This document shows positions 18-49,100 of a stretch of DNA of 64,000 bases, piece by piece. The stretch covers positions 871 to 64,870 of the forward strand of contig JACRCZ010000085.1 in NCBI GenBank assembly GCA_016218765.1, read 5' to 3'. A program made the position numbers and the translations under genes. How positions within the stretch are numbered: position 1 is the first letter of the stretch; each line of letters starts with the position of its first letter. This DNA is from Deltaproteobacteria bacterium. Its GTDB lineage: Bacteria > Myxococcota_A > Polyangia > DRWM01 > JAAZOP01. Below the pieces are notes generated by a model. The model saw only the letters and a list, made by a program, of their open reading frames with translations, was not told the origin of the DNA and did not search any database.

Positions 18-353
18 ATGCTCGAGATCGCGGGAGTCGAGAGCGAACTGGCCGCCGCGCGCGCATTCGCCGACAAGGTCGGCCTTCGCGACGACCTCGA
101 GCGGCAGCTGACCTACTTGGACGAGTACGCCGAGCACGGCGACCGCGGGAGGACCTGCTGTCGGCTCTACCGGGATTTCGCGCCCTACAGCTTCGGGTTC
201 GTCATGACCGTCCGCCGCGAGGGCGGCGTCCACAAGACGTGGTTCAACGGCGGCCTCCTGTTCCACGGTCCCCACGATCGAGGCGGCGATGGCAACGAGC
301 CGACCTTCGCCGTCTGCCTCACGCCCACGATGGGCTGGGCGATCCACACGTAG
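18..353 (+). CDS. hypothetical protein (111 aa)
   Basis: ORF with diverse amino-acid composition. It ends just before the GGAGGTG SD of the next gene. I recognise no family by eye. Confidence 0.4.
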   Translation: MLEIAGVESELAAARAFADKVGLRDDLERQLTYLDEYAEHGDRGRTCCRLYRDFAPYSFGFVMTVRREGGVHKTWFNGGLLFHGPHDRGGDGNEPTFAVCLTPTMGWAIHT

Positions 354-364
354 GAGGTGAACCG

Positions 365-1333
365 ATGTTCGAGAAGGCCCGGGCGGTGGAGACCGCCGTC
401 CATGCGATCCACCGCCAGTTCGGGGCCGGTAGCATCCTGTCGCTCGGCGACGGCGGCGCCGTCGAGCCGCTCGCGGCCATTTCCACGGGGTCCATGGGCC
501 TCGACGCCGCCATCGGCGTCGGGGGGCATCCCCGCGGCCGCATCGTGGAGTTGTTCGGGCCGAAGGGAGGCGGCAAGACGACCCTCGGGCTCCACGCCGT
601 TGCGGCGGCCCAGGCCACCGGCGGCATCGCCGCGTTCGTGGACGCCGGTCACACCCTGGACATCCGCTACGCCGCCGCGGTCGGGGTGCAGGTGGACAAG
701 CTCTACCTCTCGCAGCCGGACACCGGCGAGCAGGCCCTCGAGATCGTCGAGATCCTCTGCCGCTCGGGCGGCGTCGATCTCGTCGTCGTCGATTCCGTGG
801 GCGCCCTCGTGCCCCGCGCCCAGATCGAGGGCGAGGCGTTCGGCGAGTACGATGGGCTGCAGGCGCGGCTCCTGAGCCAGGCGCTGCGCAAGCTCACAGC
901 CGTCGCGCACCGCACCGGGACGTGCGTGCTGTTCGTGAGCGAGGTCGAGCGCGGCGCGACCGTCCCCTGCGCCAACGCGCTCAAGTTCTACTCGTCCGTG
1001 CGCATCGAAGTCCGGCACGTCCAGGACGCGAAGGACGGGGAGCGGACGCTGGGGCACGTGACCCGCGTCCGGGTCGTCAAGAACAAGGTCGCCCGTCCGT
1101 TCGGGGAGGCGGAGTTCGTCATTCGGCACGGGACGGGAATCGACCACGTCGCGGAGCTGGCCGAGCAGGCCATCACGCTCGGGGTCTTCGACGGATCGGC
1201 GGACCTGCCGGTTGCCGTCGCGCGCGACTCAGGGAAGCTGGCGACGGCGCTGCGGGAGAACGAGAAGCTGCGCCGCTTCGTGGAGGCGGAAGTGCGCGGG
1301 AGGCTCGGACTCCCGGAAATCGCTCGTTCCTGA
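365..1333 (+). CDS. RecA-family recombinase paralog (divergent)
   Basis: ATG preceded by GGAGGTG. Collinear with E. coli RecA over its full length: Walker A GPKGGGKTT, SQPDTGEQALEI, Walker B LVVVDSVGAL, NALKFYSSVR, VKNKVARPF. It deviates at the catalytic Glu (DAGHTLD vs DAEHALD) and has a shortened L2 loop. Confidence 0.85.
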   Translation: MFEKARAVETAVHAIHRQFGAGSILSLGDGGAVEPLAAISTGSMGLDAAIGVGGHPRGRIVELFGPKGGGKTTLGLHAVAAAQATGGIAAFVDAGHTLDIRYAAAVGVQVDKLYLSQPDTGEQALEIVEILCRSGGVDLVVVDSVGALVPRAQIEGEAFGEYDGLQARLLSQALRKLTAVAHRTGTCVLFVSEVERGATVPCANALKFYSSVRIEVRHVQDAKDGERTLGHVTRVRVVKNKVARPFGEAEFVIRHGTGIDHVAELAEQAITLGVFDGSADLPVAVARDSGKLATALRENEKLRRFVEAEVRGRLGLPEIARS

Positions 1334-1566: not shown

Positions 1567-2880
1567 ATGACGTTGACGACCATCGTCGCGGCGAAGCCGC
1601 TCGCGGGCGCCCTGGGCGCCTGCGCCTGGTGCCTGGAGAAGGACCCGCTCCACTTCCACCCGGGGCGCACGCGCATCGCCCGGGTGCCGGACGCGCTGGT
1701 CCTGGCCACGGCGACCAGGACCGAGAAGGTGAAGCTCCGGTTCCGCATCTCGTGCGAGCCCGGCGAAACCTGGATGGCCGTGGTCGATGCCGCCGGCACG
1801 TCCCGCCTGGCCAAGGCGTTGCGCCCCGTCATCGCCGGCAGGAAGAACGGCGGCGCCACGGTCGAGATCGAGCGCACCGAGCGCGCGCTCGTGCTGGCCG
1901 GCGGCGGCCAGCGGATGTCCGTACCGGCCTGCGAGCCGATGCCGGAGGACGCGGAGGCGCCGCGCGCCGGCGAGGCGACCAGCGTCGCGGGGGCGCGCGA
2001 TCTGGCGTCGCGGATCGCCGACGCGATGACGTTCTGCAAGCCCGCGGAGTACCGTGCCATCGCGAAGGGGCCGTTCGTCTACCTGGCGGCCGGCGACGGC
2101 GGCCTCGTCGTCCCGGTGGTCGTCGCCACCGACGGCCACCGGCTGTTCGTGGACGGCGACGCCAGGGACTGCGCGGACGCCAAGTTCGTGTTCCAGGTGC
2201 CCGGGGACGACTGGAAGCCGGCGGCCAGGGCGATGGTCGAGAGCTTCGACTTCGTCCGGCTCGTGCGCACCGTCGTCCCCCAGCCGGCCGAAGAGGACGG
2301 AAAGAAGGCGCAGGAGAAGTCGCTTTGGTGCCTCGTGTTCGAGTCGGCCGACCGGCGGGTCGAGATCGCCGTCGGCGAGCCCGAGACGTCGCTCCCGCAC
2401 TGGGCCGGCTTCGTGCCGCGGGAGACGGCGAATCCCGACCTGTCGGTCGCCTGCGACCGCGACGAGCTGGCGGCCGCGGTCAAGGCGACGGCCGGCGTGA
2501 GCAGCGAGAACGGCGCGGCCTGCATGTTCCGTGCGGACCCCGCGACCGGGCTGCTGCGGATCGCGACGTACACCGACGCCGACGGCGGGACGGCACAGCG
2601 CGAGATCGCGGCCGACATCCGCCATGCCCCGGCGGGCTTCGTGCACCTCTCCGGAAAGTACGTCCTGGACGCGCTCGGGGCGGTCCGAACGGACCGCGTG
2701 CGCATCTGGCAGCACGCCGCACCGCTCGACGCGGTCCGGCTCATCGAGGTCGCCGGCGACGGAGCCACGCTCCGGCCCCGCGCGATGGTCGTCATGCCCA
2801 TCCGCGGCCACGACCCGGTGGAGAGCACGAGTGCCGACGAGTCGGCGCAGGACGCCGCCCCGCAGGCGGCTGCGCTGTAG
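1567..2880 (+). CDS. DnaN-like beta sliding-clamp homolog (437 aa)
   Basis: The VVATDGHRLF motif matches DnaN VATDGHRLA. The C-terminal third is collinear with E. coli DnaN domain III (LSGKYVLDALGAV..., ...AMVVMPIR vs FNVSYVLDVLNAL..., YVVMPMRL). GGGAGG lies directly upstream, so the start could be TTG at 1573. Confidence 0.7.
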   Translation: MTLTTIVAAKPLAGALGACAWCLEKDPLHFHPGRTRIARVPDALVLATATRTEKVKLRFRISCEPGETWMAVVDAAGTSRLAKALRPVIAGRKNGGATVEIERTERALVLAGGGQRMSVPACEPMPEDAEAPRAGEATSVAGARDLASRIADAMTFCKPAEYRAIAKGPFVYLAAGDGGLVVPVVVATDGHRLFVDGDARDCADAKFVFQVPGDDWKPAARAMVESFDFVRLVRTVVPQPAEEDGKKAQEKSLWCLVFESADRRVEIAVGEPETSLPHWAGFVPRETANPDLSVACDRDELAAAVKATAGVSSENGAACMFRADPATGLLRIATYTDADGGTAQREIAADIRHAPAGFVHLSGKYVLDALGAVRTDRVRIWQHAAPLDAVRLIEVAGDGATLRPRAMVVMPIRGHDPVESTSADESAQDAAPQAAAL

Positions 2881-2902: not shown

Positions 2903-3424
2903 ATGAGGATCATCATGATCGCCGTCGTCGTCGCCACGATCGGGACGGGGTGCTCGAAGATGGAGGAGCCCGGCAGCATCCCGGTGACCATCAACGCCGA
3001 TGTCGCCGCGCTGCCCCGGCGGTGCCCGGCGTGCGCCGAGTGCCCCGAGCCGGAGCCGTGCCCCGAGTGCGAGACGGTGGATGCGATCTACTACTCGATG
3101 CTCCACCGCATCGAGCGCGGGAGGCCGGAAGGCTACGTCAGCACGGCCCACGTCCATCGGGGCGGCAGGTGGTACCTGGTCGCCAACGTGTTCCCGGACG
3201 GGATGGAGGGCCCGAGCGGCGCGCCGGTGGCCGACTTCGACGTCGGCAACGCGCTGCTCGCCCACGTTCGCGCGCACCCCACGGACGTCGGCGTCAAGAC
3301 GATCGCCGGCGACGACTACGCCCAGCGCGGCCGCGTGCTGGCGAGTTGGCAGCCGTTCGACCGGATCGAGGACGCGCCCGGCATCCGGGCCTCGCTCGCC
3401 AGCGTGTTCGTGCTTCTGGAGTAA
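2903..3424 (+). CDS. putative lipoprotein with CPxC-rich segment
   Basis: N-terminal MRIIMIAVVVATIGTGC (signal plus lipobox-like Cys). GGAAGGAG SD upstream. Contains a CPACAECPEPEPCPEC motif. Confidence 0.6.
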   Translation: MRIIMIAVVVATIGTGCSKMEEPGSIPVTINADVAALPRRCPACAECPEPEPCPECETVDAIYYSMLHRIERGRPEGYVSTAHVHRGGRWYLVANVFPDGMEGPSGAPVADFDVGNALLAHVRAHPTDVGVKTIAGDDYAQRGRVLASWQPFDRIEDAPGIRASLASVFVLLE

Positions 3425-3490: not shown

Positions 3491-3934
3491 GTGACCATCT
3501 GCCATTGCCCGCGGTGCGGCGAGCCGGTGCCGGCGGAACAGGCGCCGCCGTCGCTTCGCTGCTCGGCCGAGGTCTACGAGAAGTTGGGGCGTTCCCTCGC
3601 CCGTCGCAGGCAGGAGCGCTTCGTCGTAGTGGCACTCGATGCGCGCAACCGGCCCATCCGCTGCCACGTCGTCGCCGTCGGCTCCGTCGCCGCAGTCGTC
3701 GTGCATCCCAGGGAGGTGTTCGCGCCGCTCATCCGCGACAGGGCGGTCGCCGCGATCGTCCTGCACAACCACCCGTCGGGCGGGCCGGTCGAGCCCAGCG
3801 TCGAGGACGCCGAGATCACGCGTCGCCTCGCCGACGTGGGCCGGCTACTCGGCATTCCGCTGCTCGATCACGTCATCGTGGGGAAGAACGGGTACTGCTC
3901 GATGAGGGATCTGGGCCAAGTCCGCTTCCCGTAG
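3491..3934 (+). CDS. radC: RadC-like JAB/MPN domain protein
   Basis: GTG start with GGGAGG SD. Carries the JAMM-type motif HNHPSG, then EPSVEDAEITRRL and LLDHVIVG, typical of the RadC C-terminal domain. An N-terminal CxxC is present. Confidence 0.85.
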   Translation: MTICHCPRCGEPVPAEQAPPSLRCSAEVYEKLGRSLARRRQERFVVVALDARNRPIRCHVVAVGSVAAVVVHPREVFAPLIRDRAVAAIVLHNHPSGGPVEPSVEDAEITRRLADVGRLLGIPLLDHVIVGKNGYCSMRDLGQVRFP

Positions 3935-4132
3935 CAGCCGCGATGGCGACGTTGATCCCGGACCGGAAGATGGCGTACGACGCATTCGTCCGGGCGCCTG
4001 CCGGTCGAGGACGGCCGCGTCCGCACGGACCACGGAGCCGTGCCGTGACAGGTGTCGGGAGGAAGGCGCCGACATCTTCTTCGACCGCCGACGTGGCGAT
4101 TCCGCTATCGTCGGTGATCGCTCGAAACGGGG

Positions 4133-6151
4133 GTGATGGCAATGCGGAACACTCGGACATCGAACAGGCGGAAGGAGGGGAAACGCTCGCGGGCCGACAT
4201 CGAGAGGGTGGCCGGCTTGCGGAAGCGCTTCGCCACGCTCGCCGCGCAGCTGGAACTGTCGACGACCGAAGGGGTGAAGCAATCCACGCTCGGTTTTGAC
4301 CCGATGCCTCCCGCGAAGTTGGTCGCTTCTTGGCTCGACCGGACGGGGGCCGCTGCGCCCACGGTCGCGACGGCGTGTCGGACCTGCGACGCTCGGGGCC
4401 GTACCTGCCCACGGCCTCTGGAGCGGCCCCGGTACCTGCCCGCCGACTGCATCCCGTGCGTAGAGCAGTGCGAGGCGGCCCTGCGGTGCCTTCCGCCACC
4501 GGTCGACGCCACCGGCATCGCCCGTGGTGAGCCGCGGAACCAGGAGGCTCGGGGCAACGGTCACCCCCTCGAAACGGCGTCGAGCCATGTGGAGCCTGCC
4601 CGTTCGCGGCCGACTGGATCGGCCGATTCGCTACCAGCCGGGCGACGCGATCATCCCCGGGCCGATCGGTGCGTGCGCGGGCTCTCGACAGACCTCGCCT
4701 CCGCGGGCGAGGCGACGTCGGCGACTCGGACAGCGGAACATCTCTCGCGGCAGAGAGATCTGGCGGCTGCGCGCGTCGAGCGAATCGACCGCGCTCTGGC
4801 TGCCCCCTGCATAGCTGGACTGCCCGGAAGTTGCTCCCGGCTCTTCCCGGACGTGGTCAGGCTCGGGGTCGTCCGCTTGCGCGCTCCCCGTCTGCGCCCG
4901 CTGTCGGTTCTGCTCGACTGGGTCGGCTCGCATGGTGCCGTGCCCCAAGAGCCTCGGGCGTTCATCGATGCCCTGGAGGTTGCGTCGGACCTGAGGTGGC
5001 ATCGCTCCCGCTGCGGCGGCTGTCTATCCGCTCAGGCTTGGTCCGGTCATCCCACGGGCGACATCCCGATGGTGCAGTCGACGGCAGCGTCTCTTGAGCA
5101 GGCCGTGCAGGACCTGGAGATTCGGCCAGGTTTCGCTCCCGAGGAACGAGAACGCGTCGCCACGCTGATCGCAGCGTCCGGCGACTTCGAGATCCACATG
5201 GCGAGCAAGGCGCCCCGTCTTGATGATGATGACCTCACCGCGGAAGTCGACCACTTCTACGACTGGTTCAGGGGCGCCTACCACTGGGCGTTCTACGCGC
5301 CTCGCGGCGTCCAGGGCCAGCCTCGCGCCGTCCGGGACTACGTCGCCTACGCGGAGCGAGAGGCGATCCGGAAGGCTCTCCGCGCGGGCGCACGGGTGCT
5401 TCGGACCTCCGACGGCGACTTCGACGAGGTGCTTTCGAAGGCCGAAGATGTCGTCAGAACCGCAATGCGAGGGTTCTACCGGGCGTTCGAGCCGGAGGCC
5501 GTGGCGTTCCTGACCGGGAAGCGAAAGCACGGAGGCTGGACGCTCGACGCGTTGCGGATGCCGGTCGCCTGGAAGCCGGAGGGCCTCTACTGGCCGTATG
5601 CCGCCACCCTCGAAGGCTGGTTCGAAGTTCGCTGCATGCGCTTCATCGGTCCCCTGTTGCTGCTCATGGGTGTCGGACTGCGAGCGATGGTCGAGCAGGA
5701 CGATCGGGTAGAGCGGGATTTCGCCCGCATCTGCGCCGAGCTTGGACACACGGGGAGGGACCCCATAGTGTGGGTCGCGAAGCTGGTCCCATCGATTCGA
5801 TTTGAACTCGTCAGGGCGTGGAGTCGAGCTCGGGCGGGTGCGGACCCCAGGGCGGCGGCGCTGATGGACCTTCTTGAGGGAGTGCCACGACTGAGCAAGG
5901 CGGCGAAGTCCCGCGGCGGCCTGCTCCCAGCCTTCGCCGCGGATGCGCTGGAAGCCATGCTGCGCGGAGTCAGCCTCGATTCCATCCGCAACCTAGCCAC
6001 CAAGCACTCCAAGAGCGCCCGCGAGAAGACCGAGGCCCGGCCGCGACGAAGGGCGAAGAAGCCGAGCACTCGGGCGTGTCGGCGGACCGCCGACCGCACC
6101 GGCGACGCAGTCCCCCGCCACCCGCATTCCGTCACGACACGTCCCGGGTAA
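4133..6151 (+). CDS. large hypothetical protein (up to 672 aa; alternative start ATG 5069)
   Basis: Third-codon-position G/C is strongly enriched along the whole frame, as I read it codon by codon. The C-terminal half (from MVQSTAAS) has ordinary protein composition with a basic tail. No family recognised. Confidence 0.5.
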   Translation: MMAMRNTRTSNRRKEGKRSRADIERVAGLRKRFATLAAQLELSTTEGVKQSTLGFDPMPPAKLVASWLDRTGAAAPTVATACRTCDARGRTCPRPLERPRYLPADCIPCVEQCEAALRCLPPPVDATGIARGEPRNQEARGNGHPLETASSHVEPARSRPTGSADSLPAGRRDHPRADRCVRGLSTDLASAGEATSATRTAEHLSRQRDLAAARVERIDRALAAPCIAGLPGSCSRLFPDVVRLGVVRLRAPRLRPLSVLLDWVGSHGAVPQEPRAFIDALEVASDLRWHRSRCGGCLSAQAWSGHPTGDIPMVQSTAASLEQAVQDLEIRPGFAPEERERVATLIAASGDFEIHMASKAPRLDDDDLTAEVDHFYDWFRGAYHWAFYAPRGVQGQPRAVRDYVAYAEREAIRKALRAGARVLRTSDGDFDEVLSKAEDVVRTAMRGFYRAFEPEAVAFLTGKRKHGGWTLDALRMPVAWKPEGLYWPYAATLEGWFEVRCMRFIGPLLLLMGVGLRAMVEQDDRVERDFARICAELGHTGRDPIVWVAKLVPSIRFELVRAWSRARAGADPRAAALMDLLEGVPRLSKAAKSRGGLLPAFAADALEAMLRGVSLDSIRNLATKHSKSAREKTEARPRRRAKKPSTRACRRTADRTGDAVPRHPHSVTTRPG

Positions 6152-6192
6152 CTGCGACCGCCGCGTACTGGCCCGGGCGGTAGCCTGGGTTC

Positions 6193-6435
6193 ATGCTCGG
6201 ACGCAGGCCATCGCAACTTCGTCTTCGGCGCCTGGCCCTCGGTCTTCGGATCCGCGATGTGGCGAACGCCTGCGGTCTCGCGGACGCCAGGGTCTCCGAG
6301 ATCGAGCGCGGGGACGGCAGAAACCCTGACGCCGTCGAACTGGCGCTGATCGAAGCGACCCTGCGCAAGAACGAAGCTGCTGACGAGTCGACGGCCCCGG
6401 CGCAGAGCCCGCCGGACCGACGGGGGCTGGCATGA
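6193..6435 (+). CDS. XRE-family helix-turn-helix regulator (80 aa)
   Basis: LRRLALGLRIRDVANACGLADARVSEIERG is a classic Cro/C1-type HTH. The stop overlaps the next start (ATGA). Confidence 0.7.
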   Translation: MLGRRPSQLRLRRLALGLRIRDVANACGLADARVSEIERGDGRNPDAVELALIEATLRKNEAADESTAPAQSPPDRRGLA

Positions 6436-7139
6436 CCGACCGAGTCCCCGGCCACCTGACGGCCCAGAGCGGGACGAACGGCACCGCGCCGTCGTCCGAA
6501 GGTGACCGACCGGCGTCGTCGTGGTGGTTCACCGCGGAGCAGGCCGCCAAGTACGTCGGCTACCGCGGTTCCTCCGCCATTCGCATGGCCGTATGCCGCG
6601 GGGCGCTCGTCCCCCGCGGGCGACGCGGCCGCGCGCTGATGTTCCACCGAGCAGATCTCGATTCGTTCCTCCAGCGGGGTGCCCGCATTGGCGGGCACCC
6701 GCTTCCCGATCAGCTGGCAACGGAGGCCGGCAACCATGAGACGGAAGACGAAGTACCCCGGCGTGACGCAGATCGGCCCGGGCAGGTACGAACTCCGCGC
6801 CCAGATCCGGGTGGCGGGCTCGGACAAGTGGACCTGGGTCAGGAAGCGCGTCGAGGCGGCCAACACCGAGGAGGCCGCCGACGCCCAACGCAAGCTCCGG
6901 ACGGACCTAGTGTCCGCGAAGACCGAGGCCCCGTCATCCCCGCAGTACCCGACCCTTACGGACTACGCGCGATCGTGGCTGGCCCGGAGGAAGACGAGGG
7001 GGGCGAAGCCGTCGACGCTCGCGAGAGCGGCGCAGGTCCTGGAGCAGGGGATCCTTCCGGTGCTCGGCGACCGCAGGGCGGACGAGATCCGGAAGAACGA
7101 CATCGAGGAGTGGCTCTCGTGGGCGGCGAAGAGCCGTAG
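6432..7139 (+). CDS. xis: excisionase/MerR-type HTH DNA-binding protein (3' end uncertain)
   Basis: WFTAEQAAKYVGYRGSSAIRMAVCRGALVP...FHRADLDSFL resembles Xis/AlpA winged-helix proteins. The start is translationally coupled to the XRE gene. The frame has no stop until 7139, so about 400 nt overlap the integrase out of frame. Confidence 0.5.
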   Translation: MTDRVPGHLTAQSGTNGTAPSSEGDRPASSWWFTAEQAAKYVGYRGSSAIRMAVCRGALVPRGRRGRALMFHRADLDSFLQRGARIGGHPLPDQLATEAGNHETEDEVPRRDADRPGQVRTPRPDPGGGLGQVDLGQEARRGGQHRGGRRRPTQAPDGPSVREDRGPVIPAVPDPYGLRAIVAGPEEDEGGEAVDARESGAGPGAGDPSGARRPQGGRDPEERHRGVALVGGEEP

Positions 7140-7962
7140 CCAGAAGCGGCGCATCCGGTCGCCCGAGACGATCAACGGGTGGCTGCGCCTCCTGAAGACC
7201 GTGCTCCGCGACGCCGTCGGCGACCTCGATCTTCCTCGCGACCCGACCTTCCGCGTCAAGGGTCTGCCCGCACGTCCCACCCGTATCACCGACGAGCAGC
7301 CGAACTCGCTGACGGACGACGAGCTGCGGCGTTTCCTGGACGCGATGCCCGGGGAGACGGCCGAGATCCGCGCCCTCTGCGTGGTCGGGTTCTTCACCGG
7401 AATGCGCTTCGGCGAGATCTCCGCCCTGACGTGGAACGACGTCCGCGAGGACGCGGGGCTTCTGCTCATCCGCCGATCGCACTGGCGCGGGAAGGTCACG
7501 ACGACGAAGACCGGGAAGAACCGCTCTGCCGCGCTGCATCCGGTCATGCTGGGGGCGCTCCGCGAGCAGCGGAAGGTACTGCTGGAGCGCCACCTCCCGG
7601 CGATCGGCGCGGCCCTCGTGTTCCCGAGCGCGACGGGCGGCTACCACGTCCCGTCGTACCTCGAGAAGCCGTTCCGCCGGATCCTGAAGGCGGCGAAGAT
7701 CGAGAAGCACCTCTCGGCGCACGGGATGCGCCGGACGTTCAACAACCTCATGCGGCAGGCTCGCGTCGATCGTGTCGTGCTTCACGCGACGATCGGGCAC
7801 AGCTCGGAGTCGATGACGGAGCACTATTCGAACGTGCGCCCGGAGGAGAAGCTCGCCGCGGTCAACCAGCTGGTCGAGTCGGCGCGGCTCGATCAGATTT
7901 GGCTATTTCGTTGGCTATCGGGGGTCAACGGCACTTCGACGCCTTCGGGATCGTCGCCCTAA
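6736..7962 (+). CDS. int: tyrosine recombinase / phage-type integrase
   Basis: GGAGG SD 9 nt upstream. Has an N-terminal SAM-like domain and a C-terminal catalytic region (GMRFGEI, HGMRRTF, GHSSESMTEHY; R-H-R-Y pattern). It lies adjacent to a tRNA gene. Confidence 0.9.
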   Translation: MRRKTKYPGVTQIGPGRYELRAQIRVAGSDKWTWVRKRVEAANTEEAADAQRKLRTDLVSAKTEAPSSPQYPTLTDYARSWLARRKTRGAKPSTLARAAQVLEQGILPVLGDRRADEIRKNDIEEWLSWAAKSRSQKRRIRSPETINGWLRLLKTVLRDAVGDLDLPRDPTFRVKGLPARPTRITDEQPNSLTDDELRRFLDAMPGETAEIRALCVVGFFTGMRFGEISALTWNDVREDAGLLLIRRSHWRGKVTTTKTGKNRSAALHPVMLGALREQRKVLLERHLPAIGAALVFPSATGGYHVPSYLEKPFRRILKAAKIEKHLSAHGMRRTFNNLMRQARVDRVVLHATIGHSSESMTEHYSNVRPEEKLAAVNQLVESARLDQIWLFRWLSGVNGTSTPSGSSP

Positions 7963-7990
7963 ACCATCGACGCTGTTGCTGAAATCGGAG

Positions 7991-8062
7991 AGCGGGAGAC
8001 GGGATTTGAACCCGCGACGTCCACCTTGGCAAGGTGGCACTCTACCACTGAGTTACTCCCGC
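7991..8062 (-). tRNA. tRNA-Gly (anticodon GCC), CCA not encoded
   Basis: The reverse complement folds as a cloverleaf: acceptor GCGGGAG/CTCCCGC, anticodon stem CCACC/GGTGG with loop TTGCCAA, T arm GCGGG-TTCAAAT-CCCGT. Length 72 nt. Confidence 0.9.

Positions 8063-49025: not shown

Positions 49026-49100
<75 letters not shown>

Follow-up and report, generated by a model that had tools for sequence, protein, structure and literature searches.

In a 64,000-nucleotide (nt) stretch of contig JACRCZ010000085.1 from a Deltaproteobacteria bacterium (assembly GCA_016218765.1, positions 871 to 64,870; hereafter the window), the gene at 365-1333 on the forward strand encodes a degenerate RecA paralog of 322 amino acids (aa), named here RecA*. 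Judged from its sequence, RecA* is a pseudo-recombinase derived from RecA, encoded by an integrative element and kept under selection, for which a function in the control of host RecA is inferred below. The open reading frame (ORF), identified from the ORF list, Pfam and NCBIfam models and alignments, is real: it is preceded by an AGGAGG Shine-Dalgarno sequence (352-357, forward strand) placed 7 nt before the ATG at 365. The sequence and the stop codon of DUF4120, the gene upstream, overlap, and this, along with the narrow spacing of the adjacent genes, points to operon-style translation.

Residue pattern and selection in the RecA* clade

RecA* was compared with E. coli RecA, whose residue numbering is used throughout, by means of a HMMER alignment and two MAFFT alignments. 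In the window protein DAGHTLD (nt 641-661) stood opposite DAEHALD, placing Gly at position 96, and FVSEVE stood opposite FINQIR, giving the substitutions N193S, Q194E and R196E. The L2 loop was reduced from the 16 residues of E. coli (I195-T210) to 8 (VERGATVP) by a clean deletion of positions 197-204 (shortened L2, FVSEVERGATVPCAN, nt 932-976), and the Walker A motif read GPKGGGKT (nt 557-580) where E. coli has GPESSGKT. A preliminary description of the gene, made without formal alignment, had named all four departures. They were borne out here, with the three alignments agreeing on the lack of a Glu at position 96 and the shortening of L2, put at about half of its length, being exactly eight residues. 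The conservation of the Walker A Lys and of Walker B (VVVDSV, nt 782-799) claimed in the same description was also found, K72 and D144 being present in 15 of 15 members of the clade described below. Its account of the C-terminal domain as conserved had to be given up, and that of L1 had to be qualified. In the former, the GAWYSY...IGQG motif is replaced (divergent motif SADLPV..., nt 1196-1234), a 4-residue gap is present, identity to the sister clade of canonical RecAs is 33% and no match to RecA_C was obtained; in the latter, the loop tip is relaxed, with M164 variable and only 65% identity within the RecA* clade over residues 151-169.

A search of 5.8 billion proteins returned 14 further non-redundant relatives of RecA* (P0002-P0015; 322-334 aa, 70-83% identity), from metagenomes or metagenome-assembled genomes (MAGs) all labelled Myxococcota or Deltaproteobacteria. 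The next-ranked block (P0016-P0034) consisted of canonical RecAs of about 350 aa with 57-61% identity. A profile search of a representative library (1.84 billion proteins clustered at 50% identity) added three RecA*-like sequences only. One of these, P0146 (48% identity; L019, 908-1909), carries E96->A, H97->R, S145->P and Q194->D together with a degenerate L2 of almost full length, and gives the impression of the same degeneration at an intermediate stage or on a parallel course; another, P0035, is a truncated relative of 273 aa that has also lost the Walker A lysine. In a neighbor-joining (NJ) tree RecA*, P0146 and P0035 formed a monophyletic, long-branched group, sister to a short-branched clade of canonical Myxococcota RecAs. 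The family is rare, comprising some 17 non-redundant sequences that without exception come from uncultured Myxococcota. The third sequence, P0139 (643 aa; L020, 6300-8231), contains two tandem degenerate RecA modules, both without the Walker A lysine (GPEESRMT and GPPGCGTT), the first with a 'TEVE' motif and a shortened L2 resembling those of RecA*. Its context differs, with a NADAR gene upstream and neither clamp nor DUF4120 gene.

The residue pattern was then tabulated for 15 RecA* sequences and 15 canonical RecAs, the latter being invariant for Glu96, Gln194 and L2. All 15 RecA* sequences kept R60, K72, T73, D94, H97, D100, D144, S145, R169 and R176, as well as F217, Y218, R222, R243, K248, N249, K250 and F255 (K248 and K250 within VVKNK, nt 1073-1087 in the window), and Y103 was kept in 14. 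At the replaced positions E68 was Lys in 11 sequences and Arg in two, S69/S70 were Gly or Ala, A147 was Asn in 14, N193 was Thr or Ser, Q194 was Glu in 14 and Lys in one, R196 was Glu in 12, G211 was Cys in 13, G212 was Ala in 13 and K245 was Arg in all 15. Residues 197-204 were deleted throughout (15/15), M164 at the L1 tip and E207-T210 were variable, and in the C-terminal domain K286, W290, Y291 and G299-Q300-G301 were replaced. Position 96, by comparison, was Glu in six RecA* sequences, Gly in five, Asp in three and Ser in one. The L2 deletion in all 15 independent clade members, with Q194E in 14, rules out an assembly artefact, and in this set of sequences the fixed hallmarks of the clade are the L2 deletion and Q194E, not the loss of E96. 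The absence of the catalytic Glu, given prominence in the preliminary description, thus stands for the window protein and fails as a mark of the family. As the Glu96 states are scattered over the NJ tree, this residue was probably lost several times independently after the ancestor had lost L2, and Gly96 in the window protein would be one outcome of relaxed selection on catalysis. Identity between RecA* and the sister clade was 93% over region 111-139 (95% within RecA*), which we take to be the helix surface that takes up the N-terminal helix of the neighbouring protomer, and 20% in L2.

Membership of the RecA family was examined with profile models. Pfam PF00154 (RecA) matched residues 6-260 with 314 bits (cutoff 27), NCBIfam TIGR02012 was matched at 338.9 bits, barely over its cutoff of 325.3, and HMMER aligned the protein to all solved RecA structures (3CMU and others) with E values of about 1e-77 to 1e-85. 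Identity was 46-49% to E. coli RecA and 57-61% to the canonical Myxococcota sister clade. RecA_C (PF21096), present in all sister canonical RecAs, was matched neither in the Pfam scan of RecA* nor among the precomputed domains of clade members. By sequence, RecA* is therefore a member of the RecA family, yet it departs from it at three functional hallmarks (Glu96, Gln194 with L2, and the C-terminal domain), which makes it unfit for annotation as an orthologous recombinase.

Other identities were considered and rejected. The ImuA/ImuA' models NF033429 and NF058630 scored 43.7 bits against a cutoff of 150 and 25.9 against 65, and no imuB, dnaE2 or Y-family polymerase gene was found in the element of the window or in the sibling loci. 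The RadB/Sak4-type model TIGR02237 scored 37.2 bits (cutoff 172), and, unlike the core-only Sak4 and RadB, RecA* has the N-terminal helix of RecA and a C-terminal extension, though a divergent one. A PADLOC search for defence components gave mad8 as best match (E = 0.0068, 14 bits) and no match for the neighbouring genes, and among PHROG families a UvsX-like recombinase family matched RecA* (E = 2e-54). A host housekeeping recA was ruled out by the position of the gene inside an element bounded by an integrase and a tRNA gene; no second recA was found in the 64-kb window.

Selection was assessed from pairwise Nei-Gojobori ratios of nonsynonymous to synonymous substitution rates (dN/dS) for four independent genes (those of the window and of L001, L002 and L003, loci of sibling elements in metagenomes). 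Values for RecA* were 0.21-0.28, lower than the 0.40-0.48 of the nearby clamp gene and not exceeding the range of DUF4120 (0.23-0.43), indicating a protein under selection and not a pseudogene. The reading frames were intact in all 15 clade members (322-334 aa). One alternative, that RecA* is a decaying and functionless remnant of a captured recA, could draw on the lost catalytic and DNA-binding residues, on the truncated P0035 and on the absence of the gene from half of the sibling elements. It is largely refuted by the dN/dS values, and the 15 intact frames, the dozens of invariant residues including the whole ATP pocket and the strong ribosome-binding site also speak against it, so that a relic gene is very unlikely.

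Possible action of RecA* on RecA filaments

In RecA, Glu96 is the putative activator of the nucleophile in ATP hydrolysis, Gln194 is an ATP sensor joined to L2, L2 holds major determinants of single-stranded DNA (ssDNA) binding, and K248 and K250 act in trans (PMC2919713, which cites Chen et al. 2008 and Kelley & Knight 1997). Read against these roles, the kept and lost residues suggest that nucleotide binding and both protomer-protomer contact faces are under selection in RecA* and that ATP-coupled ssDNA binding and hydrolysis are not. The retained ATP pocket and assembly residues, combined with the loss of L2 and Gln194, point to an assembly subunit unable to act as a recombinase. This fits the earlier suggestion that the protein may bind ATP and RecA filaments and is unlikely to be a normal strand-exchange enzyme.

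In the mechanism proposed here, a mobile element that integrates at tRNA genes would have picked up a copy of a Myxococcota recA, which would later have become a pseudo-recombinase. With its nucleotide pocket kept (K72, T73, D94, D100, Y103 and D144) RecA* would bind ATP, with K248 and K250 it would reach into the ATP site of the neighbouring protomer, and with F217 and region 111-139 it would polymerise with itself or with host RecA. The coupling of ATP to ssDNA would have been lost through the change of Q194 and R196 to Glu, the deletion of 197-204 in L2 and the replacement of G211/G212 by Cys/Ala, and selection on the catalytic Glu96 would have lapsed. Having no grip on ssDNA via L2 and no normal ATP turnover, RecA* may cap or interrupt host RecA filaments or titrate RecA monomers, so that SOS induction and homologous recombination would be damped to the gain of the element, be it during entry, excision or replication, or by blocking recombination among related elements in one genome. 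More speculatively, several related elements per genome (as with L002, L008 and L007) would be substrates for rearrangements that RecA* could suppress. That RecA* is an ATP-binding pseudo-recombinase which joins or caps host RecA filaments and thereby damps SOS and recombination is a tentative proposal that we consider quite possible; for such a subunit on a mobile element, entry into host RecA filaments, their capping or the sequestration of RecA would be the role that needs the fewest assumptions. Its domestication from a host recombinase into a 'filament poison', an ATP-locked, L2-less RecA mimic that shuts off SOS and recombination, is put forward with slightly more reserve.

Several observations weigh against this proposal. 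The N-terminal polymerisation helix is just 51% identical to that of the sister clade, and the E68-to-Lys change in the P-loop may impair an interface on which the model itself depends. An AlphaFold2 (AF2) monomer computed from the 15-sequence clade alignment reached a mean predicted local distance difference test score (pLDDT) of 46.9 and allowed no structural conclusion. Residues of secondary DNA binding (R226, R243 and K245R) are kept, so that some DNA binding may persist. The gene always lies by a clamp gene, leaving room for a clamp-related role, and the rationale of ssDNA entry is unproven, as no conjugation or phage genes were found in the ~20 kb examined.

The retained DNA-binding residues also bear on the idea that RecA* is a still-working recombinase or single-strand annealing protein with an unconventional DNA-binding loop, serving recombination of the element and resembling the core-only Sak4 of phages. 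R169, R176, R226, R243 and K245R are kept, six clade members have Glu96, the TIGR02012 score exceeds the RecA cutoff, the UvsX-like PHROG family is matched, and Sak4 itself is an example of a minimal RecA core capable of annealing DNA (PMC5928155). However, the lost residues are those tied to ATP-coupled ssDNA binding and hydrolysis (PMC2919713): Q194E occurs in 14 of 15 sequences and R196E in 12, positions 197-204 of L2 are gone, G211/G212 are replaced and Glu96 was lost repeatedly. With the RadB/Sak4-type model also far below its cutoff, a working recombinase is quite improbable.

The RecA* slot in a family of integrative elements

The element carrying RecA* ends on the right with a tyrosine integrase gene (6679-7962, forward strand; 427 aa) and a tRNA-Gly(GCC) gene (7990-8062, reverse strand) that serves as its right-hand attachment site. 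Together with the synteny to integrated elements in other metagenomes, these features uphold the earlier statement that RecA* is island-encoded. Over at least 20 kb, related contigs share a conserved backbone, in the order AAA ATPase, DUF1257, DUF2997, small radical-SAM protein, DUF3150, 126-aa ORF, ComM-like Mg-chelatase ATPase, small ORFs, DUF3085, DUF4120, [RecA*], two small ORFs, clamp, RadC, ParB_N protein and integrase, the element adjoining a tRNA gene.

RecA* was found in six contexts: the window, L001/L006, L002, L003-L005, a 5,675-bp contig shared by P0006 and P0122, and the divergent L019. In all of them it lies on the same strand as the clamp gene, at most ~0.5 kb upstream of it and with very short gaps. 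DUF4120 is directly upstream of the RecA* slot throughout, except in L019, where RadC stands between them (DUF4120, RadC, RecA*, two small ORFs, clamp). Five syntenic elements (L008/L101, L013/L014, L015, L016 and L017/L018) lack RecA* altogether. In four of these DUF4120 is followed directly by the small ORFs and the clamp, and in L015, where no DUF4120 gene was called, these genes come after a truncated ComM-like ORF. Only 18-68 nt separate DUF4120 from the next ORF in the siblings that lack RecA*. RecA* is thus an accessory insert at one fixed slot and not an obligate partner of the clamp. Its presence in six and absence from five syntenic elements is the behaviour of an accessory modulator, not of a core replication part.

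The gene next to RecA* had been described as a clamp gene, and structure prediction agreed. Its product (1567-2880, forward strand; 437 aa, beta-sliding-clamp or DnaN-like) gave an AF2 model with pLDDT 81 and the three-domain clamp fold, which Foldseek matched over its full length to bacterial clamps in the PDB (E = 1e-21, template modelling (TM) score 0.7-0.8, ~20% identity). On the dnaN hidden Markov model it scored 19 bits, far under the cutoff of 137.65. A clamp fold with a dnaN score below the cutoff identifies a divergent clamp homologue and not an orthologous DnaN. Within this family of elements the clamp belongs to the core genes, with about 17 non-redundant members, and neither a polymerase nor a clamp loader was noticed in its vicinity.

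This neighbourhood invites the reading that RecA* is an ATP-dependent scaffold of a DNA-processing module of the element with the clamp, the small ORFs, RadC and the ComM-like ATPase, for instance recruiting or stabilising the clamp on element DNA, comparable to the joint action of ImuA and the clamp-binding ImuB or to the chaperoning of filaments by Rad51 paralogs. The position within ~0.5 kb upstream of the clamp in 6/6 contexts, the genuine three-domain beta-clamp fold of the neighbour, and the retention of ATP binding with dispensable catalysis, as in many scaffold pseudo-ATPases, are all in its favour. The association holds in one direction only, however. RecA* always stands by a clamp, while five siblings with the same backbone keep the clamp without RecA*, which shows that the clamp does not need it and weakens the clamp-linked pathway entertained in the preliminary description. 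The aligned C-terminal tails of RecA* have no canonical QL[SD]LF-type clamp-binding motif, their 'LGLP' tail is also found in canonical sister RecAs, and the ImuA model score is low (43.7 against 150). Taken together, a scaffolding role appears rather unlikely.

Patchy presence on an integrative element, with accelerated evolution and long branches, would also be expected of a decoy or sensor in conflicts between elements and phages, a RecA mimic that soaks up RecA inhibitors encoded by phages or plasmids, or that triggers or blocks a defence response. Variable cargo lies nearby in siblings, including a SocA_Panacea-domain gene and a PDDEXK nuclease gene upstream. Such a role is nevertheless improbable, as PADLOC gave no meaningful match, no recognisable effector is adjacent and the neighbours are genes of DNA metabolism, not of defence.

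The remaining genes of the element in the window were as follows, with DUF4120, the 66-aa and 169-aa ORFs and RadC on the forward strand. DUF4120 (18-353; 111 aa, assigned by Pfam) is a conserved backbone gene. A 66-aa ORF (1357-1557) lies between the RecA* slot and the clamp in all related elements, with 54-68% identity. The clamp is followed by a 169-aa ORF (2915-3424) without family match and weakly conserved in siblings (27-40% identity), and by a RadC-like JAB-domain protein (3491-3934; 147 aa), a conserved backbone gene. Then comes a variable stretch (3935-6678; ORFs for example at 5090-6151, and a helix-turn-helix (HTH)-like ORF at 6193-6435), where none of the ORFs had a counterpart in the sibling elements or matched a Pfam, NCBIfam or PADLOC model. 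Siblings hold other cargo at this place, such as ParB_N proteins. In L001 (12842-13204) and L013 (11374-11730) a divergently oriented HTH_3/XRE-type regulator gene lies on the reverse strand just downstream of the clamp, and may encode the repressor of the element.

The elements are mosaic, as seen from L008, which lacks RecA*: its integrase is 93% identical to that of the window, whereas the clamps share just 52% identity. L008 also sits at tRNA-Gly in the same arrangement, its DUF4120 is 88% identical to that of the window, and it belongs to the same MAG as L002. This MAG (GCA_964568275.1, Myxococcales) holds L002, L007 and L008, that is, at least two and perhaps three related elements, one with RecA* and one without. 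PHROGs and Pfam scans of the backbone genes over ~20 kb identified no capsid, terminase, relaxase or type IV secretion system (T4SS). A search for a repeat of the tRNA-Gly attachment site, which would mark the left boundary, in the full sibling contig L101 gave chance-level matches of at most 12 nt only.

A wider survey covered 80 metagenome loci (L021-L100) fetched via the AAA ATPase backbone gene, and neither RecA* nor the clamp occurred in any of them. The module of AAA (~490 aa), DUF1257, DUF2997, radical SAM (NrdG/QueE-like) and DUF3150 is widespread on hundreds of metagenomic contigs. At least 236 metagenome stretches encode relatives of the AAA ATPase, with homologue names from several phyla, and the AAA-DUF1257 module is the same as that of L001, L002, L008/L101, L013, L015 and L016. 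No function has been described for the AAA-DUF1257-DUF2997-DUF3150 module, papers mentioning these DUFs being confined to cyanobacteria or plastids, and no paper on DUF4120 was found. In the chromosomal part of the window a second tRNA gene, for tRNA-Met(CAT), lies at 49026-49100 (reverse strand). Around 38-48 kb the GC content is lowered to 0.65-0.68, compared with 0.70-0.75 in the rest, which might mark another island.

Comparison with known systems and implications

RecA* shares with canonical RecA the N-terminal helix and core architecture, the Walker A Lys/Thr, the Walker B Asp, K248/K250, F217 and R243. It differs in the lost or variable Glu96, the Glu residues at Q194 and R196, the L2 deletion, Cys/Ala at G211/G212, Lys at E68, Asn at A147 and the missing C-terminal-domain motif, as well as in its faster evolution and its location on an integrative element. 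Engineered or mutant dominant-negative RecA alleles (K72R, E96D and Q194 substitutions) and eukaryotic Rad51 paralogs act as subunits impaired in catalysis or allostery in mixed filaments or at filament ends; work on Q194 allostery is cited in PMC2919713. RecA*, known here from its sequence, differs from such alleles in being natural, selected and altered at multiple sites, with L2 deleted.

Within the same phylum, M. xanthus RecA2 is a chromosomal RecA duplicate that left the classical recombinase role, having neither strand exchange nor LexA co-protease activity (PMC7029660). Unlike RecA*, it is a housekeeping protein with L1 and L2 in its core and a DNA-stimulated ATPase (PMC7029660), whereas RecA* has L2 deleted and the catalytic centre degraded and is borne by an element. 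ImuA/ImuA' likewise have a RecA fold, and ImuA is not a recombinase, as would be predicted for RecA*. The M. xanthus ImuA does not bind DNA and inhibits RecA1 (bioRxiv 10.1101/2020.12.14.422803). Both proteins have a genetic link to clamp biology, as ImuB binds the clamp and RecA* adjoins a clamp gene, but ImuA is an accessory factor of the ImuB-DnaE2 mutasome, while RecA* is full length, derived from a true RecA and has no imuB or dnaE2 nearby. Brakes on RecA filaments, SOS and recombination encoded by mobile elements, such as is proposed for RecA*, include the plasmid protein PsiB, an inhibitor of RecA and SOS (PMC8406263), and RamT/RamA of ICEBs1, which in recipients bring down RecA filaments and suppress both SOS and recombination (PMC11482881, PMC11841131). 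These proteins have no homology to RecA* and are not derived from RecA, and for RecA* the role is a predicted one.

No paper describing an L2-deleted, element-borne RecA was found. Database entries for proteins of the clade (P0002 and P0015) are annotated 'recombinase RecA', as their scores just exceed the TIGR02012 cutoff. RecA is among the most conserved bacterial proteins, and recA is used as a single-copy and phylogenetic marker. As a second 'recA', RecA* could distort contamination estimates of MAGs and recA-based trees.

Purifying selection on a protein with a lost L2 and a fixed ATP pocket amounts to a natural separation-of-function experiment, in which L2, Q194, R196 and Glu96 are altered and the ATP pocket and assembly residues are fixed. 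If RecA* acts on host RecA, it would represent a new, RecA-derived route by which mobile elements control SOS and recombination, and it would offer a tool for studies of filament capping. In that case the pseudo-recombinase proposed here would be the first bacterial example from nature to match the dominant-negative RecA alleles made in the laboratory and the eukaryotic Rad51 paralogs, and would establish a new class of anti-SOS factors encoded by mobile elements.

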